Below, in pieces: positions 1 through 51,834 of a stretch of DNA of 64,000 bases. The first letter of the stretch is position 1. Every line of letters starts with the position of its first letter. Source of the stretch: a virus (lineage: Duplodnaviria; Heunggongvirae; Uroviricota; Caudoviricetes); IMG/VR virus record IMGVR_UViG_3300028666_000001, positions 1 through 64,000 of that record; one strand, written 5' to 3'. The position numbers and the translations under genes are program-made. Under the pieces are notes generated by a model. The model saw only the letters and a program-made list of their open reading frames with translations, was not told where the DNA came from and ran no database searches.

Positions 1-2
1 GA

Positions 3-260
3 GAACGTGGTATCTTCCAGATCATGCCAGATGAGTTTAGGGACTTTGATATTCATAAGAATTACTATAATGTAGACGTTAACACCTTGATGGCCTTTCG
101 AGTACTGCAATCCAAGTACAAGCAATATCCAGACTACAAGACGGCTATCATGGCCTATAATGGCTTGATAAAATTTAAGAATGGGCATTATTCGCAGAAG
201 TATTGGAAGAATTTTGAGAAGCGCAAGATTGCAGTAGATCTGGTATTAGCAGGACAATAA
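3..260 (+). CDS. lytic transglycosylase (SLT-domain) C-terminal fragment; ORF open to window start
   Basis: frame open from nt 3; GIFQIMPDEF and AIMAYNGL resemble SLT catalytic GLMQIMP..AYNAG motifs. Confidence 0.5.
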   Translation, partial: ERGIFQIMPDEFRDFDIHKNYYNVDVNTLMAFRVLQSKYKQYPDYKTAIMAYNGLIKFKNGHYSQKYWKNFEKRKIAVDLVLAGQ

Positions 261-270
261 AAAGGAATGG

Positions 271-807
271 ATGACAACATTTAGTTTGTCTGTATTATTT
301 TTAAGTATTGGTATTGTAGAATGGTATCTAGATACCTGGGAGAAATTGGTATCAGCTCGTCTTAAGTTCTGGGCTACTCTAGTATACAGTACTTTAAATC
401 AAGTCATTGACTTCTTCATGTATGTGTTCCTTTTCAGCATTCTTATCCAATTCTGGGAGACATGGCATAATGGTGTTCATGACTATTATAAATTGATCCC
501 ATATATTCTCTACACTATTGGTAAGATCCTTGGGACGGTATTAGCTACATGGTTGTATGCCAGGAATAAAAAGCAGCGTGATAAAGCTCGTGCTGTAGAT
601 ATTCTAGCTACTTCTAATAAAGCAAAGAAGAAACGAGGAAAACGAAAGTTAAGTAAAAAAACTCACTCAGTAGAAGTAGGACACCTGTTTGATTCAGTAG
701 AGACAGAAGATTTGAAAGATGAGATTAAGGCTCAAGTGGTAGAAAATGTGTCACAGAAGATCAGTGACAAGGTTGATGAAGCATTGAACCAGGAGACTAA
801 TTCATGA
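271..807 (+). CDS. membrane protein with 3-4 TM segments and long charged C-tail (holin-like?)
   Basis: hydrophobic N-terminal half, K/R/E-rich tail; follows SLT-domain gene. Confidence 0.4.
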   Translation: MTTFSLSVLFLSIGIVEWYLDTWEKLVSARLKFWATLVYSTLNQVIDFFMYVFLFSILIQFWETWHNGVHDYYKLIPYILYTIGKILGTVLATWLYARNKKQRDKARAVDILATSNKAKKKRGKRKLSKKTHSVEVGHLFDSVETEDLKDEIKAQVVENVSQKISDKVDEALNQETNS

Positions 808-1289
808 GTCTTACACGAATACAAAAAACTTTTGTAAGATTGGCAGCTCATAAATGGGGCCAAATGAGTAGTTATAGAACTAAAAGATATAGATTAGGTA
901 AATATCAACCTTCTAAAGCTAAAGTTAAAGTTGAGGTAATTGATGCAGTAACAGGTGAGAAAACATTTGGCAAAGCATCCGATGAATCAGCGGCTAAGCT
1001 CCGTAAGTGGCTAAAACTAAGAAATATTCGTGCTGAGTTTACTGATGTACTTCTTAAGAAGAAGTCTACATGGCTCAAATTGAGCGAGATGGAGTTTATC
1101 GACTATCCCGTAATAATTAAAGTAGGTTCCTATAAAGCTCCTTATTTAATTAAGCGTGTCCAGGATCGAGTTACCTATAGGGGTAAGACCACAATTAGTA
1201 TTCAACTGGAGACAACAAATAATATTGATTACTTGGGAATTTTAAGTGCAAAGAAGGAATTATTAGAAAAGAAAAAAGGATCTAAATGA
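804..1289 (+). CDS. hypothetical protein
   Basis: 161 aa ORF, start overlaps upstream stop (ATGA). Confidence 0.4.
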   Translation: MSLTRIQKTFVRLAAHKWGQMSSYRTKRYRLGKYQPSKAKVKVEVIDAVTGEKTFGKASDESAAKLRKWLKLRNIRAEFTDVLLKKKSTWLKLSEMEFIDYPVIIKVGSYKAPYLIKRVQDRVTYRGKTTISIQLETTNNIDYLGILSAKKELLEKKKGSK

Positions 1290-2416
1290 CTCCTGAACAG
1301 TATATAAAAACTCACGATCTGTGGGATCTTGAACGTTTGAAGCAACATGCTCAACATAACAATGTCTATGTGATTCAGTCGGAACGAATCCCCGATGTTG
1401 TCATGCTTCATTACATGGATGCAGTGCAGTATGATAACCTATGGGGCACATTCAATCGTATGTGTCGTGGACTCATTCTTGATATGAAGAATAGAAAGGT
1501 CCTTGCCTATCCCTTTGATAAGTTTTTTAACCTAGGGCAGATGTTAGAGACAAGCTATGATAGTCTCTCTGAGCTTGGTGGATTTGAAACCAGCGAGAAG
1601 CTTGATGGTAGCATGATTATTGGGTTCATTAATCCAAATAATGATAAGCTTACTTTTACCACTAAAGGCTCATTTGACTCTGAGCATGGGGCTTATGCTA
1701 ATACGTTTCCTTTATCTTTCAAACAACAAACAGTACTAAGAGCATTGGCTACTAAGGGAACATTGATGTTTGAGCTAATTGCTAAACCTTTTCAAATTGT
1801 TGTAGATTATAAAAAGAAAGGTTATGCTGAGGGATTGTATCTAATTGGTTTTAGGCATGAAATTTCAGATAAGCTTGCTTCTTTTGCATCTTTGAAGGAG
1901 ATAGCAGAAGAAATAAACTTACCTACTTTCAAGACCTATTCATTTAATGGCTTAGACCAGCTTATTGCTTTGGCAAAGGATCTACCAGTGCTTGAGGAAG
2001 GCTTTGTCCTGCGCTTTCCAGGTGATATTATGGTCAAAGTGAAGGGAAGTGCTTATCTGGCAGCTCATCGGTTTATAAGCCATTTGAGTGATAGGAACAT
2101 TCTACAGGCTGTGGCTGATGGGACAGCTTCAAACTTAGCTACTCTAGCTCCTGAAGAGTATCGGCAGGATGTACTAGATAAGATTACTCACTTCCAGAAA
2201 CGGGTAGCGGAATTAGAGAAGATATGCTATACTTATTATGAGAGATCACCAAAGGAAAGCTCAAGAAAGGACTTTGCTGCTTGGGTACAGGATAGTGTTC
2301 CTCCACATTTTAAAGGATTTTTGTTCCAATTATTAGATGGAAAAGTGGTTGATCGAAAAAGATTTTATAAAGTACTTGAAGAAATTGATAAGATAGATGG
2401 TAAAACGAGAATTTAA
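1286..2416 (+). CDS. rnlA: RNA ligase 1 family (T4 RnlA-like)
   Basis: CRGLILDM..YPFDKFFNLGQ..EKLDGSMIIGF matches T4 Rnl1 ECRGIMFE..PMEKFFNLNE..KEDGSL (motif I KxDG). Confidence 0.85.
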   Translation: MTPEQYIKTHDLWDLERLKQHAQHNNVYVIQSERIPDVVMLHYMDAVQYDNLWGTFNRMCRGLILDMKNRKVLAYPFDKFFNLGQMLETSYDSLSELGGFETSEKLDGSMIIGFINPNNDKLTFTTKGSFDSEHGAYANTFPLSFKQQTVLRALATKGTLMFELIAKPFQIVVDYKKKGYAEGLYLIGFRHEISDKLASFASLKEIAEEINLPTFKTYSFNGLDQLIALAKDLPVLEEGFVLRFPGDIMVKVKGSAYLAAHRFISHLSDRNILQAVADGTASNLATLAPEEYRQDVLDKITHFQKRVAELEKICYTYYERSPKESSRKDFAAWVQDSVPPHFKGFLFQLLDGKVVDRKRFYKVLEEIDKIDGKTRI

Positions 2417-2418
2417 TT

Positions 2419-2991
2419 ATGCCTTGGAAAGATCCTGAGCAAGCAAAATTGCATAAGAAGGAATATAGAAAACGAACTATAGCTCATATTAAGAAGTATA
2501 GGAAAGAATATCGTTTAAAAAATGGTGAAAAACTTCGTGCTAAAGCAAGGGAATACTACCAAGAACATAAGGATCAAATTATTGCACGAGCAGCTGAATG
2601 GTTAGAAAATAATCGAGAAAGAGCTAATAAATCTATGATAGCTTCTTATGGTAAAAGGTTAAAAGTAGATCCAAAATTGCAATTAAAAAATAGAATTAGA
2701 AGTCGTATTAAAAAAGCGATAAAAGGTAACTATAAAAAAGGTTCTGCATTACAGGAACTTGGGTGTTCTATAGAATTTTTAAAAGACCATATAGCTTCTA
2801 AATTCTATGATGGGATGTCCTGGAGTAATTCTGGTTTGGTATGGGAACTAGATCATATTGTTCCACTAGCTAACTTTGATTTAACTGATCCTGCTCAGTT
2901 TAGAACAGCAGTACACTATACAAACTTGCAACCTTTAACTATTAAAGATCATAGATTAAAAACCAAATTTGAACGAAAAGAGAGGTTATAA
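2419..2991 (+). CDS. HNH-type endonuclease, paralog 1 of 3 (basic N-terminus)
   Basis: WELDHIVPL..HYTNLQPL..K motif; paralogous to 24429 and 52398 genes. Confidence 0.6.
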   Translation: MPWKDPEQAKLHKKEYRKRTIAHIKKYRKEYRLKNGEKLRAKAREYYQEHKDQIIARAAEWLENNRERANKSMIASYGKRLKVDPKLQLKNRIRSRIKKAIKGNYKKGSALQELGCSIEFLKDHIASKFYDGMSWSNSGLVWELDHIVPLANFDLTDPAQFRTAVHYTNLQPLTIKDHRLKTKFERKERL

Positions 2992-3362
2992 TGTCTAATC
3001 GTAAATTCTTGCTTGGCATATTGGTTGGTCAGTTGATCATGTTTCCATATATTAGACACTTAATTGCTACACCACGCATTGAGGCATTGACAATTCCTAG
3101 CAGGTATTATGATTTTAGTGAGACACATCATGTGCAGATCAAGCATCTCCCTAATCGATACCATTTAGGTGGGGATACATTGAATATCTATATTGCTTCT
3201 GAGTCTAATGTCAATGCAGAGCACCATAAAGAGTTTCCAACAGATAAGTCAGTTGTTGAAGGATTCACTAATTATAGAACAAATACTATCTGGTGTATCT
3301 ATGACCCATTGGTATTGCATCATGAGATACGACATGTTACTGAAGGAGATTATCATCGATGA
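2991..3362 (+). CDS. hypothetical protein with HExxH motif and N-terminal hydrophobic segment
   Basis: HEIRHVTEGDYH near C-terminus; weak metalloprotease-like signature. Confidence 0.35.
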   Translation: MSNRKFLLGILVGQLIMFPYIRHLIATPRIEALTIPSRYYDFSETHHVQIKHLPNRYHLGGDTLNIYIASESNVNAEHHKEFPTDKSVVEGFTNYRTNTIWCIYDPLVLHHEIRHVTEGDYHR

Positions 3363-3756
3363 AATCATCAACGTTTAGTTATATCCTATGTGGGTTGTCA
3401 TTGTTTGCAGCTCTTGTTTCAGCATTAACACATCAATTGGCATGGTTATTTATTAATTTCTTTTTCGCTGTATACAATTGGTACATAGCAGGATGGAAGA
3501 GGAGACTTGAAGATGAAGCCAACGGAGAATCAGACGATACAGAAACAAAAGAGTAAGCTTTACGTTCTTTGTTTGCAATCAGAAGATGGTAAGATAGAAC
3601 GCATTTTTACAGGAAACGATTACGATCAGTTGTGGCTACAAGGAAGTACAGAGTCAAAAGCCATTGGTGGGTTTTGGTCAACCTATGATGTCCAGGGCAG
3701 ATTCATTGATGGGAATTATAGAAGTAAAGTAACTAAATAACTTAAGGAGAACTAAA

Positions 3757-4113
3757 ATGCCAGAGAATCCATTAAATCCACAAGCACCAAAACCATACGA
3801 AGGTGTAAAGCCTTGGGTACGTGATATGGTTACAGATAAACCAGGAGCACCAGGACTTGGAGCACCAGCTGCAAAGCCAGTGGTTCCAGGACTTGGAGCA
3901 CCAGTATTGGATAAACCAGTAGTTCCACCAGTTGCTGCGCCAGCTGTTGCCCCATTGCTTGACAAGCCATTGCTTGATAAACCAGTAGTTCCAGGAGCAA
4001 AACCAGTAGTTCCACCAGTGCTTGATGAGAAGCCAGCTGCTGCAGTTCCTGCTGCTACAACACCAGCACCTGCAGCAACAGTAACACCAACACCTCCCCC
4101 AGCCTCAAAGTAG
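3757..4113 (+). CDS. proline-rich tandem-repeat protein (KPVVPGLGAP repeats)
   Basis: strong RBS AAGGAGAACTAAAATG; repetitive KPVVP/GLGAP units; reverse-strand shadow ORFs. Confidence 0.45.
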   Translation: MPENPLNPQAPKPYEGVKPWVRDMVTDKPGAPGLGAPAAKPVVPGLGAPVLDKPVVPPVAAPAVAPLLDKPLLDKPVVPGAKPVVPPVLDEKPAAAVPAATTPAPAATVTPTPPPASK

Positions 4114-4145
4114 TTTAGGAGGTCAGTTAAAGGAGATCCATAGGT

Positions 4146-4655
4146 ATGAGTTGCAGAGTATACCTCAGTGGAAAAATGTCTAACCGTTACGTTGAGGATG
4201 TTAAGTCCGAGCGTAGACGAGCAACAGAAGAGTTAGCAAAGTATCAGATGAGGGCTGTAGATCCTGCAGCTGCTGAAGAGAAGTTGTGGCCTAATAAAAA
4301 GAAAGCAAAAATCTCTTCAACATTTAAGCGCAAGATTATGGAGATCATGGTTTGGCATGATCTTTGGCTCATTAGGCGTTGTGATGTAATGCTCGTTCTT
4401 ACAGGTGATGTGGTATCAGAGGGTACATTGTTAGAGTGGCGTTACGCTCAAAACATTGGTATCCCTGTTATTATGATTGCGCCTGAGAGAATGAAAGGAA
4501 ACTTTATGGGTTGGGTAAATATTCTAATACCCCAAGACCATACATTTCCAGACCTTAAATCAGCGGCTAGATTCATACACAAAAAGTATGCTAAAGAATA
4601 TGCAAAGCACCATGAGTACTTTGCAGCTGCTATTAAGAATCGCAGAGTAAGATAG
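4146..4655 (+). CDS. nucleoside 2-deoxyribosyltransferase-like protein
   Basis: VYLSGKM and DVMLVLTGDVVSEGTLLEWRYAQNIGIPVIMI resemble the deoxyribosyltransferase fold motifs. Confidence 0.45.
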   Translation: MSCRVYLSGKMSNRYVEDVKSERRRATEELAKYQMRAVDPAAAEEKLWPNKKKAKISSTFKRKIMEIMVWHDLWLIRRCDVMLVLTGDVVSEGTLLEWRYAQNIGIPVIMIAPERMKGNFMGWVNILIPQDHTFPDLKSAARFIHKKYAKEYAKHHEYFAAAIKNRRVR

Positions 4656-4658
4656 CCA

Positions 4659-4687
4659 TTGACAGGTTATCTTACTTCTGCTATACT
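4659..4687 (+). promoter_or_regulatory. sigma70-type promoter TTGACA-N17-TATACT
   Basis: exact hexamers read in sequence. Confidence 0.55.
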
Positions 4688-4704
4688 TAAATAAAGGAGA
4701 TAAA

Positions 4705-4809
4705 ATGTTAAATCCAATTGACGCTGCTGCAACAGTTACTACTATTGCTATGTGGATTGTTTCTATATGCACATTCTTTGGGGTATTGGCAGCTATTCTT
4801 ATAAACTAA
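4705..4809 (+). CDS. small hydrophobic peptide (34 aa)
   Basis: AAGGAGATAAAATG RBS immediately after promoter at 4659. Confidence 0.3.
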   Translation: MLNPIDAAATVTTIAMWIVSICTFFGVLAAILIN

Positions 4810-4813
4810 TAAA

Positions 4814-5275
4814 ATGACATTTGATCCAGATTTAGTTCGAGTTGACCTAATGCTAGTAAAGCGTAAGCTGTATATAAGGCATCCTGAAGGTTCACCAGAA
4901 CGTAAGGCATTTTTGCTTGCTTCTAAACTTTCAGAGCTTACTCATTTACAGAAGCTTGTTGATCCTTTAGTCACGGAAATGATTTTTAATGAATATAATA
5001 GTCAATTAAAAAATGAAGTTATTAATATTATATTGAGTATTGGTCTTGGAGCTTGCTTATCTGTGATGCTGTATGCATACCATCAATTGCATCCTACTAA
5101 TCTTTGGCTATGTTTCTATTTGACTCCAATAATCACAGGAACTTTATTTGCTTCCAGTCATGTATTCCACATGATTGATCGTTGGAAACATTTTCAACCC
5201 TTTAAAGAAGACTATGAAACTCTTTGTAAACAGATTGAGAAACTAACAAATGAAATAAAGGATTTTGCGAAATGA
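4814..5275 (+). CDS. membrane protein
   Basis: two to three predicted TM segments in C-terminal half. Confidence 0.4.
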   Translation: MTFDPDLVRVDLMLVKRKLYIRHPEGSPERKAFLLASKLSELTHLQKLVDPLVTEMIFNEYNSQLKNEVINIILSIGLGACLSVMLYAYHQLHPTNLWLCFYLTPIITGTLFASSHVFHMIDRWKHFQPFKEDYETLCKQIEKLTNEIKDFAK

Positions 5276-6474
5276 GCATTCAAGCATTTCATGATGCTAT
5301 AGTTAATCTGCAGCCAGTGGATCTTTTCCAATATGAGGATGAGATCCCTGAGTTCAAGCTGCTCCATGGCTGTGAACAAAGTCCTGAACATCATGCAGAG
5401 GGAAATGTTCTAATCCATTGTAACATGGCAGGTCAAATAGTTCTTCAGCTTATAGAGGCTGAGAACATTAAAGAAGAATATAAAGTCCTTCTTTATATTG
5501 CCACCATCCTACATGATATTGGTAAACCCTGCACGAGTGTCTTCAATGCAAAGAAAAATAAGATCACTGCATATGGGCATGATGATGCGGGAGTTCCCAT
5601 TGCTAATGAATTTCTTAAGAAGTATTTTCCTGAGTTCCATTATAAGCAGCGTGAATTAGTCTGTAGACTGATTGAACAACACATGCATCCTCGTATGTGG
5701 ATCAAAGATGGTACAGCTACAGTCATAAAGCTAAAGATGCTATCTCTCACTGTGAACACAAAGCTTCTTTATGTTCTATCACAAGCTGATACCCTGGGGC
5801 GAACAGCTAAAGATATGAATGCAAGTATGTCCTTGCTTGAATTGTTTAAACAAAATTGTGAAGACTTAGGCATATGGGATAGACCCTATCGTGTCCCTCT
5901 TGCTACTCATTTGGATAATGCTTCATACTCTCTTGCTAGATGGAATATTCTTATGCATAAGGCCCCAGAAGATTTGGATACTTACGATGCTGCTGTTGAG
6001 ATTATGGTCCAACCTCCTAAACCTAATTTCCAATTGATGGTCTTGATTGGGGCTCCAGGCTCAGGTAAGTCTACAGTTCGTGAACAGTTGGTTGCAAAGT
6101 ATCCTGGTATTAAGGTTATCAGCATGGATGAAAGACGTAAAGAGCTTACGGGTGATGCTAACAATCAGTCACGTAACAATGAAGTGTTTGGTTGGCAGCA
6201 AAAAGAGTTGAGGAAAGCCATGGAAGCGAGACAGAATACTATTGTAGATGCCACAAATACTAGTCGTAAATTGCGTAGAGTTCTTTGGGATATAGCTCGT
6301 GAGAATGGGGCTCTTTGTAGTGCTATCTATTTCGATTTGCCTTTAGCTGTGTTGCTTGAGCGTAATGCATCCAGGGAGAAGAGAGTTCCAGATAGTGTTG
6401 TGGAACGCTTCTATAATACAATGCAATCTGTATGTCCCTGGGAGGCAGACTTAGTTCAAGTTATCGATAAGTAA
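5272..6474 (+). CDS. pnk: HD-domain phosphohydrolase fused to polynucleotide 5'-kinase (Pnk) domain
   Basis: N-term H..HD (ILHDIGKP); C-term VLIGAPGSGKST..DATNTSRKLRRVLWDIARENG aligns with T4 Pnk kinase ILTIGCPGSGKST..SDTNLNPERR. Confidence 0.8.
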   Translation: MSIQAFHDAIVNLQPVDLFQYEDEIPEFKLLHGCEQSPEHHAEGNVLIHCNMAGQIVLQLIEAENIKEEYKVLLYIATILHDIGKPCTSVFNAKKNKITAYGHDDAGVPIANEFLKKYFPEFHYKQRELVCRLIEQHMHPRMWIKDGTATVIKLKMLSLTVNTKLLYVLSQADTLGRTAKDMNASMSLLELFKQNCEDLGIWDRPYRVPLATHLDNASYSLARWNILMHKAPEDLDTYDAAVEIMVQPPKPNFQLMVLIGAPGSGKSTVREQLVAKYPGIKVISMDERRKELTGDANNQSRNNEVFGWQQKELRKAMEARQNTIVDATNTSRKLRRVLWDIARENGALCSAIYFDLPLAVLLERNASREKRVPDSVVERFYNTMQSVCPWEADLVQVIDK

Positions 6475-6475
6475 C

Positions 6476-6676
6476 GTGCGAAACGTCCTGCTTCTACTAC
6501 TCATTTTTGCTGTATCCTTCCTAATCGCTGCTTGTGCTACCATTGAACCTGATGATGGTAGACATCTTACTCCACCTACATTCCACTGGCATGACTACAC
6601 ACCTAAAACATCTCTAGATTTCGATATGAATATTTCTGGAGACACAATAAAGATTTCCCTTGACAGAAGTAGATAA
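6476..6676 (+). CDS. small lipoprotein/secreted peptide
   Basis: signal peptide with LIAAC lipobox-like. Confidence 0.35.
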   Translation: MRNVLLLLLIFAVSFLIAACATIEPDDGRHLTPPTFHWHDYTPKTSLDFDMNISGDTIKISLDRSR

Positions 6677-6688
6677 GTATGTTATACT
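6660..6688 (+). promoter_or_regulatory. sigma70-type promoter TTGACA-N17-TATACT, spacer GAAGTAGATAAGTATGT
   Basis: near-identical 34-nt copy at 14282. Confidence 0.6.
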
Positions 6689-6715
6689 TATTATATGAAA
6701 GGGAGGAACAAACAA

Positions 6716-6994
6716 ATGGCTCAACTCAAAGCAGTGAAGCGTGGAAACGATTACTATTGTCAGTGTGGTGAAATGCTTTCCGTTGGTGGTTGGGGTCGTC
6801 GTCGTATTCCTCTAGGATTTGGATTTGCTGGCAAAGGATTCCAAGTTGATTTCGTCGAGATCAAGACAGTCATGGGGTATTGCTTTAAATGTAAGACTGA
6901 TGGACACTTTGACCTACCTAGTCGTAAGCCTAAGATCGTTACCCGCTATCCTCGTAAAATCAATAACAAAATAAATGCTGCAGGGAGGGTGTAA
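6716..6994 (+). CDS. hypothetical Zn-ribbon protein
   Basis: GGGAGG RBS 9 nt upstream of ATG 6716; promoter at 6660. Confidence 0.45.
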   Translation: MAQLKAVKRGNDYYCQCGEMLSVGGWGRRRIPLGFGFAGKGFQVDFVEIKTVMGYCFKCKTDGHFDLPSRKPKIVTRYPRKINNKINAAGRV

Positions 6995-7347
6995 TGTCTA
7001 AATTAAACGCCTATGGAGTGGCTGTTGATGTCGAGTTATTTGATCTAATCGAACTGTCTTATAAGTATAAAAGCTATAGCAAACAGTTCATTAAACGGGT
7101 CACTAAGTTCATTCTGAATACTGATCACATTTCAGGTTGCTTATTGATCCAAGCTACAACCATTAATTTGGTTAGTAAACTGGCAGAGAATGATGCTCTT
7201 TTAACCTATGTGGTTAAATTCATCAAAGTACATAGTGTGCCAAAGATTGATAAGATGCTTGCTGCACGTTATGGTGATGAGTTGCGCCGTTTAGAGCTGC
7301 GTATTCCTGCAGTTGATTATGCAAACGTTGTAAGATTGTTTCAATAA
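6994..7347 (+). CDS. hypothetical protein
   Basis: 117 aa ORF, ATGA-coupled to upstream gene. Confidence 0.4.
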   Translation: MSKLNAYGVAVDVELFDLIELSYKYKSYSKQFIKRVTKFILNTDHISGCLLIQATTINLVSKLAENDALLTYVVKFIKVHSVPKIDKMLAARYGDELRRLELRIPAVDYANVVRLFQ

Positions 7348-7353
7348 TAGCCC

Positions 7354-7382
7354 TTGACATTGTTACCTACTCATGCTATACT
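7354..7382 (+). promoter_or_regulatory. sigma70-type promoter TTGACA-N17-TATACT
   Basis: exact hexamers. Confidence 0.55.
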
Positions 7383-7388
7383 TATTTC

Positions 7389-7787
7389 ATGGAGGAAACA
7401 AAAATGAAAAATGATCAAGACACTGTGTTGTGGCTCTCTATACAAGATGCTCTTAATCTTTATCTTGAAGCGATCAAAGCTGATTACCTTCGTGGTTATC
7501 GTCCTGTGGCTAATGATTCTATTGCGGAGCAGATTCGTAATGAGTCTATCTATAATTTCTTCAAGGGCTTGACTTATGAAATTGGCAGCAAATATATCAA
7601 AGTTATTACAGCTCATGGACCTTCACGATCAGTTCATTCCTTTATTGTTCGTGAAGATGGCCCTAAGTTTAAGAAGGGTGATATCCTTAAGTCAGCTACC
7701 TGGAATGCTCCTGCTAAGAATCAGGCTCGTGGTAACATCTTTGGTCAATATCACATTAGTTGGACGGGTGCGGATTACCTTCGATGA
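7389..7787 (+). CDS. hypothetical protein
   Basis: GGAGG RBS, promoter at 7354. Confidence 0.45.
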   Translation: MEETKMKNDQDTVLWLSIQDALNLYLEAIKADYLRGYRPVANDSIAEQIRNESIYNFFKGLTYEIGSKYIKVITAHGPSRSVHSFIVREDGPKFKKGDILKSATWNAPAKNQARGNIFGQYHISWTGADYLR

Positions 7788-8008
7788 AAAAGCTTTCACT
7801 TTTAATTATTACCTTGGCCTTGATTGGTTGCCAGAAATGTAAGCGTGGTCATGTTGAAAGGGTCCATCATCCTGCTTGGGTGCAGATGATTACAACTTCC
7901 ATTAAGCCTTTGATTATGGTTCCTATTACACATCCAGCTTATGATGCTAATGAGTTTATGTGTGATGAATACTGTCAGAAAGGCGATACTTCAAAGGAGT
8001 GCAAATGA
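7784..8008 (+). CDS. lipoprotein
   Basis: MKKLSLLIITLALIGC lipobox. Confidence 0.45.
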   Translation: MKKLSLLIITLALIGCQKCKRGHVERVHHPAWVQMITTSIKPLIMVPITHPAYDANEFMCDEYCQKGDTSKECK

Positions 8009-24428: not shown

Positions 24429-25025
24429 ATGAGTAAAGTATGTGTTGGATGCAAAAAAGATAATACTCAGATCCAATTTGGTTCAGATAAACGAACTTTA
24501 TCTGGTTTAAGATCTCGTTGTAATGAATGTCGTAAAACAGAATCATCTCCAGAAGATGTGAAAGCTCGTGGACAACGTTGGTATATTAAAAATAGAAGTA
24601 AAGTATTGAAAAATGTTCAGGCTTATAAAAAGGCTCATATAGATTGGTGGAGAAAATACACTAATAATTATGATAAAATTAATGCTAAAGAAAGTATTAT
24701 TTATAAAATTAAACGAAATCTTCGTGCTCGTTTACGTGCAGCATTAAAACATAATTTAAAACAAGGATCAGCAGTTCAAGAGCTTGGTTGTTCAGTAGAT
24801 TATTTTAGGAAGTATTTAGAATCTAAATTCTATGGAAATATGTCATGGGATACTTATGGGCTTGGAAAAGATAAATGGCAAATAGATCATATTGTTCCTA
24901 TTAAGAGTTTTGATTTTACAAATAAAGAACAATTTAAAAAAGCTGTTCATTATACTAATCTTCAACCTTTATGGTATATTGATCATGTACTTAAAACCAA
25001 AGAAGATAGGAGGAGTTATAAATGA
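24429..25025 (+). CDS. HNH-type endonuclease, paralog 2 of 3
   Basis: CVGCKK..CNECR zinc site, basic region, WQIDHIVPIKSFDF..HYTNLQPLW. Confidence 0.6.
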   Translation: MSKVCVGCKKDNTQIQFGSDKRTLSGLRSRCNECRKTESSPEDVKARGQRWYIKNRSKVLKNVQAYKKAHIDWWRKYTNNYDKINAKESIIYKIKRNLRARLRAALKHNLKQGSAVQELGCSVDYFRKYLESKFYGNMSWDTYGLGKDKWQIDHIVPIKSFDFTNKEQFKKAVHYTNLQPLWYIDHVLKTKEDRRSYK

Positions 25026-25555
25026 GAGTGATGATGTTGGATTTTGATGGAGTATTGAACAGTAAGCAGCACTTCCTTGCTACCAAAGGCTTTAAGGTTC
25101 CAGGAGCTGATACGCTTAATGATGCAGATTTGTTTCGCATGAAGTCTGATGTCAATGCTAATAACATGTGGGTATTACGCTTTATCATGGATCAAGTACC
25201 AGACCTGAAGATTGTTATCTCCTCAGCTTGGAGAAGCTTCTATAGCCTTGAATCCTTTAAAGAGCTATTCAAGATCTATAAGCTAGATGGTGACAGGATC
25301 ATTGGAGTAACACCAAAGAAATTCAGCTCTGAGCGTATCCATGAGATTCACATGTGGTTGGATGACTATGTAGAACTTCACCACAAGCAGCCAGATTGGG
25401 TTGCCTTGGACGATCATGCTATCTTTAACCTAGGAGATCCAGAGAAGGTTAGAGAGTTCCTAACAGACAGCTGGGTGGGTTTAACGATGCAGGATGCTTT
25501 TAAAATTGTTCAGCACTTTCATCCTGAGTATCAACCTCCTGTGATACTGATATGA
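25022..25555 (+). CDS. HAD-superfamily phosphatase-like protein
   Basis: motif I MLDFDGVL, motif II VISSAW, motif IV ALDDH. Confidence 0.5.
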   Translation: MRVMMLDFDGVLNSKQHFLATKGFKVPGADTLNDADLFRMKSDVNANNMWVLRFIMDQVPDLKIVISSAWRSFYSLESFKELFKIYKLDGDRIIGVTPKKFSSERIHEIHMWLDDYVELHHKQPDWVALDDHAIFNLGDPEKVREFLTDSWVGLTMQDAFKIVQHFHPEYQPPVILI

Positions 25556-25882: not shown

Positions 25883-26440
25883 ATGAGATACTTTACAAGC
25901 GATACACACTTTGGTCATGGGAACATTATTAAGTACTGCACACGTCCATTTAAAGATGCAGGTGAGATGGATCGTGCTATCATTGCTAATTGGAATGAAA
26001 CGGTGCAGCCTGATGATATTGTCTACCATCTTGGGGATGTAGCCTTTACTTCACCAGATAGAGCGAAACATATCCTTAGTTGCCTGAATGGGCATAAGAT
26101 ACTGATCCTGGGAAACCATGATAGGTCAGGTCATAAGATGGCAGAGTGGGGCTTTGCTGAAGTGTACCAGTCCAAACAGATTGAGCTGGAAGGTGGTATA
26201 ATCGCTAACCTTTCTCACTATCCATATCGTGGTGATAAGAATGATCCTTATCATAAAGTAAAGTTTGACACTAAGAATCTAGATGATGATGGGCGGCTAC
26301 TTATCTGTGGTCACGTTCATACTGCTTGGAAATCTATTCCAGGTAAGTATAAGAATCATATGATCAATGTGGGTCAGGATCAATGGGCCTTTAGACCTAT
26401 ATCTGAGACTCAGCTTCTAGAGTATCTAAAAACACTTTAA
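25883..26440 (+). CDS. calcineurin-like metallophosphoesterase
   Basis: SDTHFGH, GDVAF (GD), ILGNHD, GHVH motifs. Confidence 0.75.
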   Translation: MRYFTSDTHFGHGNIIKYCTRPFKDAGEMDRAIIANWNETVQPDDIVYHLGDVAFTSPDRAKHILSCLNGHKILILGNHDRSGHKMAEWGFAEVYQSKQIELEGGIIANLSHYPYRGDKNDPYHKVKFDTKNLDDDGRLLICGHVHTAWKSIPGKYKNHMINVGQDQWAFRPISETQLLEYLKTL

Positions 26441-33498: not shown

Positions 33499-33787
33499 TG
33501 GATGATCTTGTTTGGGGAACCATTAAATATAAAGGTCCACCTCTTCAATATGAGTGGTTTCATTTTTGTTCTGATGGCACATTGATTTGGAATTGTCTAT
33601 GGTCTAATTGTGAGAACTGTAAAAAACTAGAGGAATATTACAATGAGCAAGCCTAAAGTAAAAGATCGCTCAGGCTTTAGCCATGATTGCCCATTCTGTG
33701 GGTATCACATTGTAGTCTGTTGTTCCCCTGAGTATTTGAAATGTATCTATTGCTGTAGACGTTGGAAATTAGAAAAGGATGAGAACA

Positions 33788-34504
33788 ATGAGCAAACCCC
33801 AGAAAGATAGTCTTGGTGATAGGATGAAAGGGTATGAAAACGTCACTAGGACGTTTTTAACTGGTAGGATGCCTTGTATCATTAGGATTGATGGAAAAGC
33901 CTTCCACACCTTAACTAAGGGCCTTAAGAAGCCATTTGATAAGGACTTTGCAGATGCTATGTTAGCTACAACCAGAGATCTATGTGATGAGATTCAGGGA
34001 GCTGCTTTAGCCTATTGGCAATCAGATGAGATATCGATTCTTTTAATTGATTATTTAAGGTTAACTTCTCAGTCATGGTTTGATAAGAATATTCAGAAGA
34101 TGGTATCAGTTAGTGCCAGCATTGCGACAGCTAGTTTCAATAGTTGGTTCCAATTCCCCGATACCTGCAACTCAAGAGCTACTTTTGATAGTAGGGTCTT
34201 TACTTTACCTAGAGAAGAGGTTTGTAACTATTTTTTATGGAGACAACAAGATGCTACTAGAAATAGTATCAATTCTGTTGGTCAAGCTTATTTCTCCCAT
34301 AAGCAATTACATGGTAAAAATACAGATCAAGTTCAAGATATGCTTTTTAAAGAGAAAGGGATCAATTGGAACGATCTACCAGTTATTGAGAAAAGGGGTG
34401 CTTGTATAGTGAAGCAGGAAGGTGGTTGGATAGTAGACAGAGAAATCCCTATCTTTAGTCAAGATAGAGAATATGTAAATAAGTTTGTTAATATAGGAGA
34501 TTAA
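33788..34504 (+). CDS. Thg1-like protein (tRNA-His guanylyltransferase family, 3'-5' polymerase; tRNA 5'-end repair)
   Basis: CIIRIDGKAFHTL / KPFDKDFADAM / YWQSDEISILL / FLWRQQDA align with Thg1 VVVRLDGRNFHRF / KPNDSRALQLM / YGQSDEYSFVF / YLSWRQADC. Confidence 0.85.
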   Translation: MSKPQKDSLGDRMKGYENVTRTFLTGRMPCIIRIDGKAFHTLTKGLKKPFDKDFADAMLATTRDLCDEIQGAALAYWQSDEISILLIDYLRLTSQSWFDKNIQKMVSVSASIATASFNSWFQFPDTCNSRATFDSRVFTLPREEVCNYFLWRQQDATRNSINSVGQAYFSHKQLHGKNTDQVQDMLFKEKGINWNDLPVIEKRGACIVKQEGGWIVDREIPIFSQDREYVNKFVNIGD

Positions 34505-34642: not shown

Positions 34643-34671
34643 TTGACAGACTAAGCTTTAGGGGGTATACT
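34643..34671 (+). promoter_or_regulatory. sigma70-type promoter TTGACA-N17-TATACT (leaderless ATG 34678, HNH gene)
   Basis: exact hexamers. Confidence 0.5.
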
Positions 34672-34677
34672 ATTATT

Positions 34678-35148
34678 ATGAAGTCTAAAGCAAAAGAATT
34701 ATACGATAAACAGTATTATCAAAGAACTAAAGAGCAACGTAAACAGCATAGAGATTTACATCGTGCTGAGCATCTTATTTATGATAAAGAGCGATATGTT
34801 AGATTGAAGAATGAGTTTGCTAAAAGAGCTAGAACATTAGAGGTTCGTTTTAAATCGGGAGTTTCAAAAGCTAAGAAGATGAAGCGAGAATGGCAAATAT
34901 CTTTTGTTGAATATAAGCAATTAATTAAATTGGGTTGCTATTATTGTGGTGTGGACTTGACAGATACAGCAGGAACAAATTTGGATAGGGTAGATAATAA
35001 GAAAGGCTATACACTGAATAATGTTTTACCTGCATGTGGCCCCTGTAATGAAAGTAGATTTGATCATTTCACAGTGCCAGAGTGGGTTGCTATGATTCGA
35101 GCTTTGCAGGTCTATAGACATAACAAGGAGAATGGCTATGTCCGTTGA
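34678..35148 (+). CDS. HNH homing-endonuclease-like protein
   Basis: CYYCGVDL..NLDRVDNKKGYTLNNVLPACGPCNESR canonical HNH. Confidence 0.65.
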   Translation: MKSKAKELYDKQYYQRTKEQRKQHRDLHRAEHLIYDKERYVRLKNEFAKRARTLEVRFKSGVSKAKKMKREWQISFVEYKQLIKLGCYYCGVDLTDTAGTNLDRVDNKKGYTLNNVLPACGPCNESRFDHFTVPEWVAMIRALQVYRHNKENGYVR

Positions 35149-36178
35149 AAGAAAGTTAGCATCAATTCAAAAAGTCTTAGATGTCCAGCCTATTCCTGGG
35201 GCTGATGCTATTGAATGTCTTACTGTTCTTGGTTGGAAGGTTGTTAGCAAGAAAGGTGAATTCAAGGTTGGAGACTTGGTTGTTTACTTTGAAGTTGATT
35301 CGATTCTCAAAGAATCTCCTGATGTTGAGTTCCTGCGTAAGTCAGGCTTTCGTATCAAAACGATACGATTACGAGGTCAAGTTAGTCAGGGTCTTTGTTT
35401 GCCACTATCCATCTTGGCAGGTGAGTCTGAGTTGCCACATGAGCCACATGCTGAGGGTGATGATGTCACTGAGCTGCTTGGAGTAGTTAAGTATGAACCA
35501 TATGTGCCAGCTCAGTTGGCTGGTCTTGCCAAAGGTAACTTCCCAGAGTTCTTGCATAAGACAGATGAGACTCGTATCCAGGCTGTGCCAGCAGTATTAT
35601 ACAGACACCAAAACAAAAAGTTTTATGTGACAGAGAAGGTTGACGGGTCCAGCATGACTGTCTATTTCAGACGCAATGAGCACTTCGCTGATGGAGAGTT
35701 TGGCGTTTGCTCTCGTAATATAGATATGAAAGAAGAAGGTGGTACATCGTTCTGGAAAGTAGCTAGAGAGCTTGACCTTGAGAACAAGCTGCGTAGCCTT
35801 AATCGTAACATTGCGCTGCAGGGTGAGTTGCTTGGTCCAGGTGTCCAGGGCAATAAGTATAAGCTAGAGAAACTTGGCTACTATGTGTTCAACGTTTTTG
35901 ATATTGATACTGGTCTTCATTTTAATTATGATGACTTTGTTAAGATGATAATTTATTTGCAATTGCAGCCTGTTCCTTTGGTTGATGATTCATTTATATT
36001 ACCTAACACTATAGATGAATTGGTCCAATACTCTAAAGGTAAGAGTGCAATGAATAAAGATTCTCATCGTGAGGGTATTGTGTTGCGTCCTTTGATTGGT
36101 GAGTATGATGAAGATCTGCGTGGTCGCTTAAGTTTCAAGTGCATTAACCCAGATTTCCTGTTAAAATATGATGCGTGA
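35138..36178 (+). CDS. ATP-dependent RNA ligase (Rnl2/Rnl5 superfamily) with N-terminal tRNA-binding-type OB domain
   Basis: motif I TEKVDGSS, motif IV REGIVLRPL, motif V LSFKCINPDF; N-term IPGADAIECLTVLG..GDLVVYFEVDSIL resembles Myf/EMAP-II tRNA-binding fold. Confidence 0.75.
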   Translation: MSVERKLASIQKVLDVQPIPGADAIECLTVLGWKVVSKKGEFKVGDLVVYFEVDSILKESPDVEFLRKSGFRIKTIRLRGQVSQGLCLPLSILAGESELPHEPHAEGDDVTELLGVVKYEPYVPAQLAGLAKGNFPEFLHKTDETRIQAVPAVLYRHQNKKFYVTEKVDGSSMTVYFRRNEHFADGEFGVCSRNIDMKEEGGTSFWKVARELDLENKLRSLNRNIALQGELLGPGVQGNKYKLEKLGYYVFNVFDIDTGLHFNYDDFVKMIIYLQLQPVPLVDDSFILPNTIDELVQYSKGKSAMNKDSHREGIVLRPLIGEYDEDLRGRLSFKCINPDFLLKYDA

Positions 36179-36992: not shown

Positions 36993-37170
36993 GTTTATTT
37001 GGTGGAGATAAGACACCTGAAGTAGAAAAGCCTGATATTTGGGAAGAGGTTGGAGAGGATACAGATATCTATCGTACACGTACTCCTGAAGGTTGGTTAA
37101 TTATGGATAATCAATATCATAGAGGCGGGTTAACATATGTGCCAGATGCAGATCATAAATGGAGGCTAGG

Positions 37171-37821
37171 ATGAACATAATTCCCACAGTCATAGAAAAG
37201 AATCCAGGTGCAGGTAGCATGGTGTCGTATGATCTGTTGTCACGTCTCATGCAGGATAGGATCTTGTTTGTTGGTGGTAATCATGGAGCTATCAGCCTTG
37301 ATGATGCTAACATTCTAATTGCCCAGCTTCTGTATCTGGAGTCTATTGATCCAGGCAAGCTGATTCAGATGTATATCAATTCTCCAGGTGGAGAAGTTTC
37401 CGCTGGATTGGCTATTCTTGATACAATGCGCCACATTACAAGTCCAATTCAAACTATCTGCATGGGTATGGCTATGAGCTTTGGAGCTGTGCTGCTTAGC
37501 TCAGGAGCTAAAGGCAAACGTTTTGCATTGCCTAATGCTCGTATCATGATCCATCAACCATTGATCAGCGGTGGTGGCATATCTGGTCAGGCTACAGATA
37601 TTGCTATTGAAGCTAAAGAAATGGTTCATTGCAAAGAGTCTCTTACTAAAATCATGGCTAAAAACTGTGGTCAAGAATATGAGAAGGTACTTGCTGATTG
37701 TGAACGCAATTTCTACATGTCAGCCGAGGAAGCAAAAGCGTATGGTTTGATTGATTCGGTTATTTACCCAGCAGAAGAAGGTAAGTCAAAGACCAAAGGT
37801 TATTGGGACGACGGTAAATAA
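37171..37821 (+). CDS. clpP: ClpP-family serine peptidase (S14), copy 1
   Basis: INSPGGEV, GMAMSFGAVLLSSGAKGKRFALPNARIMIHQP closely parallels E. coli ClpP [32 protein letters not shown]; GGAGG RBS. Confidence 0.8.
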   Translation: MNIIPTVIEKNPGAGSMVSYDLLSRLMQDRILFVGGNHGAISLDDANILIAQLLYLESIDPGKLIQMYINSPGGEVSAGLAILDTMRHITSPIQTICMGMAMSFGAVLLSSGAKGKRFALPNARIMIHQPLISGGGISGQATDIAIEAKEMVHCKESLTKIMAKNCGQEYEKVLADCERNFYMSAEEAKAYGLIDSVIYPAEEGKSKTKGYWDDGK

Positions 37822-40130: not shown

Positions 40131-40502
40131 GTGAAACTCTACGTAGACGATCTTAGGATTTGTCCAGAGGGTTGGACATTAGCCCGTACAAACACAGAAG
40201 CTATTAGACTTTTAGCTACTGGATATGTTACAGAGATATCTATAGATCATGATATTTGTGTGCCTAATGCTCATCTTATAAATCAGACTGTCCGTAAACG
40301 TCTTGCCATTGGAGAAGAGACATATCAGCCTGTGGCTTATTATATTGCTGCTATGCCAAAGCCCAATCTGATTAAAGTAAATTTCCATACAGCTAATCCA
40401 GAGGGAGCAGCAAAGATGAAGAGTATCCTTGATGCAGTAGGTATTGAATCTACCTATACCCCAGGCAGTTATCTTATTGACTTAGGAGATACAGAGATAT
40501 GA
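40131..40502 (+). CDS. hypothetical protein (GTG start per track)
   Basis: 123 aa ORF. Confidence 0.35.
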   Translation: MKLYVDDLRICPEGWTLARTNTEAIRLLATGYVTEISIDHDICVPNAHLINQTVRKRLAIGEETYQPVAYYIAAMPKPNLIKVNFHTANPEGAAKMKSILDAVGIESTYTPGSYLIDLGDTEI

Positions 40503-49928: not shown

Positions 49929-50531
49929 ATGAAAAAACGAACGCCTAAAGTATTTTTACGTGATACTAATGAGAACGTAGTGTTCTTCTGGAAAAAGTAT
50001 TTTAAACCTTTTCCTGAAGTAGAGATTTCCAGTGGTGATATCTTTGAGATTAAAGCTGATGCTATAGTCTCACCCGCCAATAGCTTTGGTATGATGAGTG
50101 GTGGGATTGATTTGATTTATAGAGATAAATTTGGACTAGATGTAGAAAAGCTTGTGCAGAAGAATATTGATCTCCATTACTATGGTGAGTTGCCAGTTGG
50201 TCAAGCGTTGAGTGTTCCTATGAAAGGCCAGGATTACAATTATTTGATTGTGGCTCCTACCATGCGTCTTCCAATGAGTGTAGATAATACCCTCCATCCT
50301 TATGCTGCCTTTCGTGCTACCCTTTTAAGAGCTAAAGATAAAGAAATTGAGTCACTTGTGTGCCCAGGACTTGGAACGGGTGCTGGTATAGCATGTCCAG
50401 AAATGGTAGCCCGTCAAATGTTTATTGCTTATATCAATGTTGTTCTAAATATAAGTCCTACCAATTATGATCATCTATTAAAGCAAATGGGTTGGATGTT
50501 ACGTTGTTCTCAGGATAAAAGAGTTCTCTAA
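49929..50531 (+). CDS. macro-domain protein (ADP-ribose binding/hydrolase)
   Basis: IKADAIVSPANSFGMMSGGIDLIY and CPGLGTGAGI match macro-domain signature. Confidence 0.6.
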   Translation: MKKRTPKVFLRDTNENVVFFWKKYFKPFPEVEISSGDIFEIKADAIVSPANSFGMMSGGIDLIYRDKFGLDVEKLVQKNIDLHYYGELPVGQALSVPMKGQDYNYLIVAPTMRLPMSVDNTLHPYAAFRATLLRAKDKEIESLVCPGLGTGAGIACPEMVARQMFIAYINVVLNISPTNYDHLLKQMGWMLRCSQDKRVL

Positions 50532-51007: not shown

Positions 51008-51218
51008 TCCAAGAGAGTACTGTCGTACTTGTAGCCATGCTGATTGGTTGCACGTTAAAACATATTATTATGCTTGTGGTAGAAAACCACGTTCCTATCA
51101 TGAGGCACAATATGCCTCTGAGATTTGTCCCTGTAAAGAATTTTTGCCTGAAGATAATTTAGCTTACTTAGAGCAGTTAGAGAAAAGGAGTCACACTAAT
51201 GAAACCCCACAATCATGA
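50973..51218 (+). CDS. DNLxYLE-tail small Zn-knuckle protein
   Basis: CRTCSHADWLH..CPC; tail DNLAYLEQL. Confidence 0.6.
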   Translation: MKKALINHKSNDPREYCRTCSHADWLHVKTYYYACGRKPRSYHEAQYASEICPCKEFLPEDNLAYLEQLEKRSHTNETPQS

Positions 51219-51834
51219 GGATGAAGAATCTCAAGGTACACCATTTAATCCATATAATGAATTTGAAATTGATACCTATAAGGCTCTTCTTAAAGATAGG
51301 ATCATTCTTTATAATGGTGATATCGATAAAAGTGTAATTGAACGAATTGTTCTACCACTCACCACTTTGGCACAGAAAAGTGTAAAGCCAATAAAGCTCC
51401 TGATCAATTCTCCAGGTGGGTCTGTAACAGATGGGCAAATGGTTGTAGATTCTATCTTAACTTCTAAAGCACCAGTTATCACCGTTGCACTTGGAGAAGC
51501 TATGAGTGCAGCCTTTGATATATTTCTTGCTGGAGATAGACGCATTGTGTACCCAAATACAGTCCTCATGATGCACTCAGGCTCATCTAGGTTTGAATCT
51601 CAGACTTTACCTCAGATCAATGTAGAGGCTGATCTTCATCGTAGGTACTTTGAGAGATGGTCTGCTTGGTATGCCTCCCGCACTAAAGTTGATCAGAAGG
51701 CTTGGCATGACATGCTTAGTACTGGATTAAATTATTATTATTTTCCAGAGGAAGCATTAAAGGTTGGTTTGGTTCATGAGATCATTAAACCAGTAAGTAA
51801 GAATGTTTCTGGAAGAAAACGATTTAAATTATAA
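51199..51834 (+). CDS. ClpP-fold serine peptidase (S14), divergent copy 2
   Basis: LINSPGGSV, GEAMSAAFDIFLAGDRRIVYPNTVLMMHSGSS parallels ClpP Ser/His regions; AAAAGGAG RBS. Confidence 0.65.
   Translation: MKPHNHEDEESQGTPFNPYNEFEIDTYKALLKDRIILYNGDIDKSVIERIVLPLTTLAQKSVKPIKLLINSPGGSVTDGQMVVDSILTSKAPVITVALGEAMSAAFDIFLAGDRRIVYPNTVLMMHSGSSRFESQTLPQINVEADLHRRYFERWSAWYASRTKVDQKAWHDMLSTGLNYYYFPEEALKVGLVHEIIKPVSKNVSGRKRFKL

Follow-up and report, generated by a model that had tools for sequence, protein, structure and literature searches.

A predicted HD-Pnk end-healing enzyme linked to an Rnl1-family RNA ligase in a phage of the Caudoviricetes

Described healing-and-sealing systems

RNA breaks that leave a 2',3'-cyclic phosphate and a 5'-OH can be mended by healing both ends and then sealing them. 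In phage T4 this falls to PseT, which has a 5'-kinase and a 3'-end phosphoesterase on one polypeptide, and to the Rnl1-family ligase RnlA. Here we describe the same combination of activities, as predicted, in a stretch of phage DNA of 64,000 nucleotides (hereafter the window; positions 1 to 64,000 of IMG/VR record IMGVR_UViG_3300028666_000001, Caudoviricetes). It encodes an Rnl1-family ligase (1286-2416) and, further along the same strand, a protein of the HD-Pnk family (5272-6474), in which an HD domain is fused to a polynucleotide kinase. To judge from the sequences, the two probably make up a phage pathway for healing and sealing such breaks, analogous to T4 PseT plus RnlA.

The HD-Pnk of Runella slithyformis (Munir & Shuman 2017, in the account of PMC6097658) is a bifunctional 2',3'-phosphoesterase and 5'-OH polynucleotide kinase, whose open reading frame (ORF) lies directly downstream of an overlapping ligase ORF. 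The Deinococcus radiodurans HD-Pnk is the subject of a study by Schmier & Shuman (2018), cited in PMC6300522. For phages, the jumbo-phage comparison of Iyer et al. 2021, as given in PMC7824862, lays out the same healing-sealing logic and notes that in a few jumbo phages HD-like domains appear to carry out the phosphatase step. Earlier work has already described this class of enzyme, the logic of the pathway and the use of HD-type phosphatases by phages in RNA repair, and in these respects our findings are confirmatory. We know of no phage HD-Pnk that has been characterised so far.

Two further systems resemble the locus in part. Clostridium thermocellum Pnkp (CthPnkp, of the Pnkp-Hen1 system) also heals and then seals, and its kinase is the best match in the Protein Data Bank (PDB) for the window kinase; it differs in having a calcineurin-type binuclear metallophosphoesterase and an Rnl4-type ligase fused on the same polypeptide, and the window showed no Hen1 gene. 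Bacillus phages of the Tsamsa type (vB_BanS-Tsamsa gp174/gp175) pair an Rnl1-family ligase (28% identity to that of the window) with an AAA_33/HD protein, as the window does. In Tsamsa gp175 (locus L008, 5128-6102), however, the kinase comes first and HD last, a permuted order, and the gene overlaps Rnl1; a tblastn alignment with the window protein is confined to the kinase half. Annotations of the Tsamsa-type fusion vary between hypothetical protein, ATPase and polynucleotide kinase.

The HD-Pnk protein and its family

5272..6474, + strand: predicted HD-Pnk bifunctional end-healing enzyme, 400 amino acids (aa), with Pfam HD and AAA_33
5377..5802, + strand: HD phosphoesterase domain of HD-Pnk, residues ~36-177, placed by Pfam HD and conserved columns
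6031..6426, + strand: P-loop 5'-OH polynucleotide kinase domain of HD-Pnk, residues ~254-385, placed by AAA_33, a phmmer search of the PDB and Foldseek

An earlier, sequence-only reading of this locus had assigned the N-terminal half of the 5272-6474 protein to an HD domain instead of the HAD phosphatase of T4 PseT, and the C-terminal half to a kinase of the T4 Pnk type. Both assignments hold. Pfam HD matches residues 47-174 well above its cutoff (E 2.6e-9, 37.8 bits, cutoff 22), whereas HAD_PNKP (PF25109) has no match in the protein and recognizes T4 PseT, used as a control, at 2.8e-59. The metal-binding motif reads H41/H49...H81-D82...H103...H137...D173; in 16 phage and bacterial members H41, H49, H81, D82 and H137 never vary, and H103 and D173 hardly do. 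The domain has its nearest named relatives in CCA-adding/repair enzymes, whose HD domains it resembles (NF008137, 2e-4; TIGR02692, 1.4e-5; PDB 3wfp, 1.5e-3).

Pfam AAA_33 covers residues 255-384 (E 3.2e-27), and BLASTP aligns 254-385 with residues 3-144 of the T4 Pnk kinase domain at 31% identity (E 5e-14). The window kinase is nearer to the bacterial Pnkp type, with its DATN motif, than to T4 Pnk. A phmmer search against the PDB ranks the C. thermocellum Pnkp kinase (6e-13) ahead of T4 Pnk (6e-9), and Foldseek likewise puts the CthPnkp kinase first (TM-score 0.76, root-mean-square deviation 2.2-2.6 Å), followed by mammalian PNKP, PSTK and T4 Pnk. The P-loop (G260-T268, including K266 and S267), the catalytic D286, R289, the DATN motif (D326), R364 and R368 are all intact, and K266, S267, D286, R289, D326, R364 and R368 map onto catalytic residues of T4 Pnk or CthPnkp. 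The AlphaFold2 model of the whole protein is confident (pLDDT 93.4, pTM 0.92); a PDB fold search with it was dominated by the kinase domain, so that the HD domain received no structural neighbour of its own. The 5272-6474 protein is by these sequence criteria an HD-Pnk family member with every checked catalytic residue intact, and its activity is predicted accordingly.

Is RNA the substrate, or does the protein act on small molecules, as a (cyclic/oligo)nucleotide phosphohydrolase joined to a nucleoside or nucleotide kinase, in salvage or in the destruction of a defence signal? HD proteins and AAA_33/zeta-toxin-like kinases do include many small-molecule enzymes (the Pfam list here runs to Zeta_toxin, 6PF2K, gluconokinase-like and adenylate-kinase-like families), and a conserved neighbour of the gene resembles nucleoside 2-deoxyribosyltransferases. 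We nevertheless consider a small-molecule role very improbable. By sequence and by fold alike, the kinase domain is best matched by kinases of polynucleotides and of tRNA. D286 and R289 stand where T4 Pnk has D35 and R38, the residues with which it engages the 5'-OH polynucleotide. Over its length the window protein is collinear with an HD-Pnk that has been demonstrated to be an end-healing enzyme, and among HD domains its own is nearest to the one that CCA-adding enzymes use in tRNA repair. Healing of polynucleotide ends is the function that we prefer for HD-Pnk.

The fusion had also been called unusual, which does not stand up: an HD domain joined to a kinase is real here yet belongs to an already named, biochemically characterised class. 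The D. radiodurans HD-Pnk (WP_010884033.1, 413 aa, on megaplasmid MP1), which we found via a plasmid collection and whose old locus tag is presumably DR_B0098, aligns by BLASTP through its residues 16-384 with residues 6-377 of the window protein (393 columns, 25% identity, E 4e-17), so that the two, which are of similar size, are collinear end to end. Like the window protein, the Runella and Deinococcus enzymes have an N-terminal HD domain followed by a C-terminal P-loop kinase, and the H..HD..H..H..D motif and the GxGKS, D and R kinase residues are conserved. A word-indexed search returned full-length homologues at ~30% identity from Deinococcus, Chitinophaga, Rubritalea, Verrucomicrobiota and Bacteroidota. 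A scan based on an alignment of bacterial members found at least 562 HD-Pnk loci in species-representative genomes from many phyla, with neither Runella nor D. radiodurans among the best 80 of these. An exhaustive search of cluster representatives gave 2,048 at E<=1e-10, and the best 150 of the 2,048 are nearly all 340-430 aa long and matched over their full length. Phage members are on deposit too: a viral structure library holds full-length matches in an uncultured myovirus (TM-score 0.75) and in Campylobacter phage PC5, where the protein is labelled "putative polyA polymerase". What sets the window HD-Pnk apart from the bacterial members is that it is phage-borne and only 25-30% identical to them.

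One metagenomic homologue (P0241, 753 aa, 53% identical) carries a LAGLIDADG intein within the kinase P-loop (GPPG|CHAKG...HHN|SGKT), a further selfish element aimed at the HD-Pnk gene family.

The Rnl1-family ligase

1286..2416, + strand: Rnl1-family ATP-dependent RNA ligase, 376 aa, identified by Pfam, PHROG, BLASTP, profile and fold

That the 1286 gene encodes a ligase of the T4 Rnl1 type with motif I EKLDGS, as had been read from the sequence, is borne out by several methods. Pfam RNA_lig_T4_1 (PF09511) matches at E 3.8e-19 (69.9 bits, cutoff 28.3) and PHROG 562 over nearly the full length at E 6e-54. BLASTP aligns residues 60-292 of the window protein with residues 53-283 of T4 Rnl1 (244 columns, 26% identity, E 5e-14), and a profile built from a 20-sequence Rnl1 clade finds the T4 Rnl1 structure 2c5u at E 2e-21, covering T4 residues 43-359 and so reaching the C-terminal domain. 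A phmmer search with the single protein against PDB sequences gave nothing at E<=0.01; the relationship to T4 Rnl1 is established by pairwise BLASTP, the clade profile and the fold search. In the last of these the AlphaFold2 model (pLDDT 90.6) has T4 Rnl1 as its top Foldseek match (E 8e-17, TM-score 0.59 over the full length), with fungal Trl1 ligase domains next.

In the model a nucleotidyltransferase domain (~60-254) is followed by an all-helical C-terminal domain (~255-368). The adenylylation lysine in motif I, K105, aligns with T4 K99. Mutagenesis by the Shuman laboratory reportedly found R54, K75, F77, K99, D101, G102, K119, E159, E227, G228, K240, K242 and Y246 of T4 Rnl1 to be essential, and all 13 are kept in the window protein (R61, K79, F81, K105, D107, G108, K127, E163, E238, G239, K251, K253 and Y257). 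It is accordingly predicted to belong to the Rnl1 family with its catalytic apparatus intact. In T4 Rnl1 the all-helical C-terminal domain is the tRNA-specificity domain. That of the window protein, though all-helical (255-368), has no match to Pfam T4_Rnl1_C, which detects the T4 domain, run as a control, at 1.8e-39.

The annotation of T4 gp63 (RnlA) includes a second activity, tail-fibre attachment, and the label of PHROG 562 carries the same dual activity. This invites the idea that the phage uses the genes to process its own RNAs, for instance in maturing them, or structurally, with the Rnl1 homologue attaching tail fibres like gp63, rather than for repair against host defences, and the Thg1-like enzyme of the window (see below) hints at a broader tRNA metabolism. 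Such a role is hard to credit. All the catalytic residues of the ligase are kept, which a purely structural role would not need; the surroundings of the genes are a block of small genes rich in early promoters and not a structural module; and the window has no tRNA genes, introns or Rfam families.

Arrangement of the two genes

2419..2991, + strand: putative free-standing HNH/His-Me-finger endonuclease gene, 190 aa, assigned by motif, PHROG 1035 and mobility pattern
2991..3362, + strand: ORF of 123 aa with a hydrophobic segment at the N terminus and HEIRH, an HExxH-like motif, at the C terminus, from the ORF list; no assigned function
3359-3556, + strand: small ORF, 65 aa; no Pfam or PHROG match
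3507-3740, + strand: small ORF, 77 aa; no Pfam or PHROG match
3757-4113, + strand: small ORF, 118 aa; no Pfam or PHROG match
4146..4655, + strand: DUF4406/nucleoside 2-deoxyribosyltransferase-like protein, 169 aa (DUF4406 2e-5, Nuc_deoxyrib_tr 1.6e-4)
4659..4687, + strand: sigma-70-type promoter-like site with extended -10, TTGACA-N14-TGn-TATACT, 11/12 match
4814..5275, + strand: predicted two-transmembrane protein, 153 aa, stop overlapping the HD-Pnk start (5272-5275); no Pfam or PHROG match

The ORFs at 1286-2416, 2419-2991 and 5272-6474 are all present, on the + strand, in the ORF list of the window. Rnl1 lies upstream of HD-Pnk on one strand in all six related phage contigs that we compared (the window, L002, L003, L005, L090 and L091). 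The distance between the two genes is 2.86 kb in the window, with seven ORFs between; in the other five it is, in no particular order, 2.3, 2.9, 4.3, 7.2 and 7.3 kb. The linkage of ligase and HD-Pnk is thus conserved. The pair had been described as split by the HNH gene, but HNH is only the first of the seven intervening ORFs, and the enzymes stand apart in all six contigs and in T4 as well. The T4 order, on one strand, is rnlA, alc, pseT.3, pseT.2, pseT.1, pseT, with a 1.4-kb gap and four genes between the two enzymes. Since T4 rnlA and pseT are likewise separated by small genes, and likewise have the ligase upstream, the layout is T4-like rather than that of a broken-up operon.

The likeness to T4 extends to the proteins, as both the kinases (31%) and the ligases (26%; profile E 2e-21) are homologous. 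It stops at the phosphoesterase, which is an N-terminal HD domain in the window protein and a C-terminal DxDxT HAD domain in PseT. The window protein is therefore predicted to be PseT-like in function without being a member of the PseT family.

Bacterial HD-Pnk and that of the window are both associated with an ATP-dependent RNA ligase gene, but the ligases and layouts differ. In the bacterial loci examined the commonest layout is a small PF09414 ligase (~210 aa) whose ORF abuts or overlaps HD-Pnk, and a cassette of this bacterial type, with a small PF09414 ligase abutting HD-Pnk, also occurs in the 462-kb megaphage LR756500.1 (locus L093, 9279-10999). D. radiodurans MP1 has, in this order, a small gene of the RNA ligase family, a PARG-like gene and the gene for the 413-aa HD-Pnk, with the DraRnl ligase ~2 kb off. 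In the window, by contrast, the ORF ahead of HD-Pnk encodes the 153-aa membrane protein and no ligase, the nearest ligase being the Rnl1-family one 2.9 kb upstream, and HD-Pnk has no Tpt1 or PARG-like neighbour, unlike its bacterial counterparts.

The promoter-like site at 4659-4687 lies in a 159-bp gap upstream of the gene for the 153-aa protein and HD-Pnk. The motif TTGACA-N14-TGn-TATACT has ten copies in the window (starting at 4659, 6660, 7354, 8162, 12873, 14292, 19859, 28974, 34643 and 37825), all on the + strand and all intergenic, where 0.02 would be expected by chance. The set looks like the early promoters of the phage. Because a strong, repeated promoter motif stands between them, a single operon holding both Rnl1 and HD-Pnk was rejected as unlikely.

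A probable pathway for RNA repair

In the proposed pathway tRNA or another RNA would be cut by a ribotoxin of the host, such as a PrrC- or RloC-like anticodon nuclease, leaving a 2',3'-cyclic phosphate and a 5'-OH. The N-terminal HD domain of HD-Pnk, with one or more transition metals bound by its His and Asp residues, would remove the cyclic, 3'- or 2'-phosphate to give a 3'-OH/2'-OH end. The C-terminal kinase would transfer the gamma-phosphate of a nucleoside triphosphate (NTP) to the 5'-OH, with D286 as general base and K266 and S267 holding the NTP and Mg. Rnl1, adenylylated at K105, would then pass adenosine monophosphate to the 5'-phosphate (AppRNA) and seal the break.

The sequence-only reading had proposed just such healing and sealing. 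Its logic is sound and the domains and residues fit; the substrates and the cooperation of the two enzymes are another matter, and these we infer. It is likely that the enzymes cooperate on RNAs of this kind, probably tRNAs, and that their role is anti-defence, the purpose of ribotoxin reversal being drawn from the analogy with T4 and PrrC. The linkage gains support from the Tsamsa-type Bacillus phages, in which the Rnl1 gene overlaps a permuted kinase-HD fusion, and from the ligase gene that abuts HD-Pnk in bacteria and in megaphage LR756500.1. The further RNA-repair genes of the window (see below) suit the same picture.

Several points weigh against this pathway. The Rnl1 and HD-Pnk genes are adjacent in none of the six contigs and, since the promoter-like motif at 4659-4687 stands between them, they probably belong to separate early transcription units. 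Rnl1 is a distant family member on sequence and no T4 RnlA equivalog, scoring 57.2 bits with TIGR02308, the NCBIfam RnlA equivalog model, below its cutoff of 242.25. The window holds no tRNA genes and no Rfam families across its 64 kb, and therefore lends no support to phage tRNA substrates or to intron-encoded HNH genes. The natural substrates of the bacterial HD-Pnk/ligase cassettes are given as still unknown in PMC6097658, and a title cited in PMC6300522 ties the Deinococcus HD-Pnk to DNA damage resistance. The ends on which HD-Pnk enzymes act include those of DNA. Finally, the window encodes a second RNA ligase, of the Rnl5 type that is found near HD-Pnk in Deinococcus, and the true partner of HD-Pnk could be this enzyme instead of Rnl1.

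35132..36178, + strand: second RNA ligase, Rnl5/DraRnl (DRB0094) type, 348 aa (TIGR02306 198.6 bits, cutoff 151)

This ligase has the Pfam PHA02142 OB fold and RNA_ligase domains and matches D. radiodurans DraRnl by BLASTP at E 6e-20. HD-Pnk might, then, serve mainly the nick-sealing Rnl5 ligase 29 kb downstream, or the repair of nicked duplex RNA or of DNA ends that has been proposed for Deinococcus, leaving Rnl1 to act independently and its proximity to reflect nothing but a shared early block. The DRB0094-type ligase of the window does exceed its curated cutoff; D. radiodurans MP1 and D. yunweiensis have an Rnl5-type ligase beside HD-Pnk or within ~2 kb of it; the window HD-Pnk has a promoter-like site of its own; and an Rnl1 gene is never beside HD-Pnk in the bacterial loci examined. 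We still find this account distinctly unlikely. The distance from HD-Pnk to Rnl5 in the window is 29 kb, against 2.3-7.3 kb to Rnl1 in all six relatives, and in the Tsamsa-type phages Rnl1 is coupled directly to a kinase-HD fusion. The two partnerships are moreover compatible, for healed ends can supply both ligases.

If the pathway through HD-Pnk and Rnl1 is as proposed, what would it mean? A phage clade that links HD-Pnk with a T4-type tRNA-repair ligase would offer a concrete counter-defence setting for the in vivo role of HD-Pnk, and an example of non-orthologous displacement, HD for HAD phosphatase, inside a conserved healing-and-sealing pathway.

The HNH gene and other genes between the enzymes

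The HNH gene is neatly inserted: the Rnl1 stop codon lies on one side of it and the start of the following gene on the other. Its 190-aa product has the catalytic motif DHIVP...NLQPL...DH (D145-H146...N169...H178), common to both of its paralogues in the window (24429-25025 and 52398-52922, + strand; 51% and 43% identical in the catalytic half), and it matches PHROG 1035 (endonuclease VII/His-Me) at 4.8e-7. The Pfam HNH model has no significant match in this protein or its paralogues (best E 0.25, in one paralogue), and a three-sequence HNH profile found nothing meaningful in the PDB. The HNH assignment is accordingly founded on the motif, the PHROG match and the mobility pattern rather than on Pfam HNH.

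In L002 the Rnl1 and 123-aa genes directly adjoin, with no HNH gene between them; L090 has a copy of 47% identity elsewhere in the cluster, and the window paralogues are dispersed. On this basis the gene appears to act like a free-standing homing endonuclease, as had been suggested, and we class it as a selfish mobile endonuclease outside the repair pathway. One paralogue is directly upstream of the HAD_SAK_2 gene (see below), so that mobile endonucleases repeatedly flank RNA-repair genes, and genes of the Endonuclease_7 or HNH_3 families occur at other positions around the cluster in relatives.

Two of the other intervening genes are widely kept. The 169-aa DUF4406-like gene has homologues in every related phage contig checked (47-88% identity). 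The 153-aa two-transmembrane protein is conserved in all six contigs, with invariant N-terminal residues D6, R9, D11, L12, R17, K18, S27, E29, R30, F33, L34 and E41; perhaps it works together with HD-Pnk, perhaps it is only a syntenic neighbour. Homologues of the 123-aa HExxH-like ORF directly follow Rnl1 in L002 (61%) and L090 (74%), and it was considered as a conserved partner of Rnl1 and rejected, unrelated genes being found at that position in L003 and L005. The 118-aa ORF at 3757-4113 (+ strand) is proline-rich with short repeats (PGLGAP, LLDKPVVP), and an antisense ORF at 3678-3965 that overlaps it is probably a by-product of the repeats.

Other RNA-repair genes and the rest of the window

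25022..25555, + strand: HAD_SAK_2 'Swiss Army Knife' RNA-repair phosphatase, 177 aa (Pfam 1.8e-19; 59% identity to the HAD_SAK_2 protein of L003)
25883-26440, + strand: Metallophos_2 phosphoesterase
33779..34504, + strand: Thg1-like tRNA-His guanylyltransferase/3'-5' polymerase, 241 aa (Pfam Thg1 2.8e-29, PHROG 4717 2e-95)
34678-35148, + strand: HNH-like ORF (PHROG 1035 1e-10), which precedes and overlaps the Rnl5-type ligase ORF
40131-40502, + strand: cREC-like phosphoesterase, GTG start
49929-50531, + strand: Macro-domain protein

Taken together, Rnl1, Rnl5, HD-Pnk, Thg1, HAD_SAK_2, Metallophos_2, the cREC-like protein and the Macro-domain protein suggest a broad, redundant RNA-repair toolkit. 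The Thg1-like protein, which is 58% identical to the Thg1 genes of Bacillus phages, could mend 5'-truncated tRNAs. By the HNH-like ORF and the Rnl5-type ligase there is a copy of the promoter motif, at 34643-34671. It may be that this phage lineage (contigs of ~175-190 kb) maintains a broad RNA-repair arsenal in which the swap of HD for HAD clears 2'-phosphate and 2',3'-cyclic ends, or resists host counter-measures, as HAD cannot. Several tRNA-targeting defences would then be reversed, including nucleotide-excising nucleases, and the phage context would also show ribotoxin-cut tRNAs to be the natural substrate class of the bacterial HD-Pnk cassettes. We offer this wider view as speculation and think it rather doubtful.

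The window has ~38% GC throughout and a positive GC skew, and its catalogued + strand predicted genes make up ~69% of it. Megablast of positions 1-8000 against 50,697 phage records gave no match; the close homologues of the window proteins are encoded by metagenomic contigs 100-190 kb long whose genes are phage-like. The source is therefore an uncultured large phage. Three very large consecutive ORFs on the + strand, at 53392-56193 (933 aa), 56246-58858 (870 aa) and 59275-62811 (1178 aa), have no Pfam or PHROG match, and for the 1178-aa ORF tblastn against the 50,697 phage genomes gave at most a trivial match of 46 residues. Two genes of ClpP-like or head-maturation-protease-like type (37159-37821 and 51199-51834, + strand) lie 14 kb apart in surroundings that are otherwise early-gene-like.

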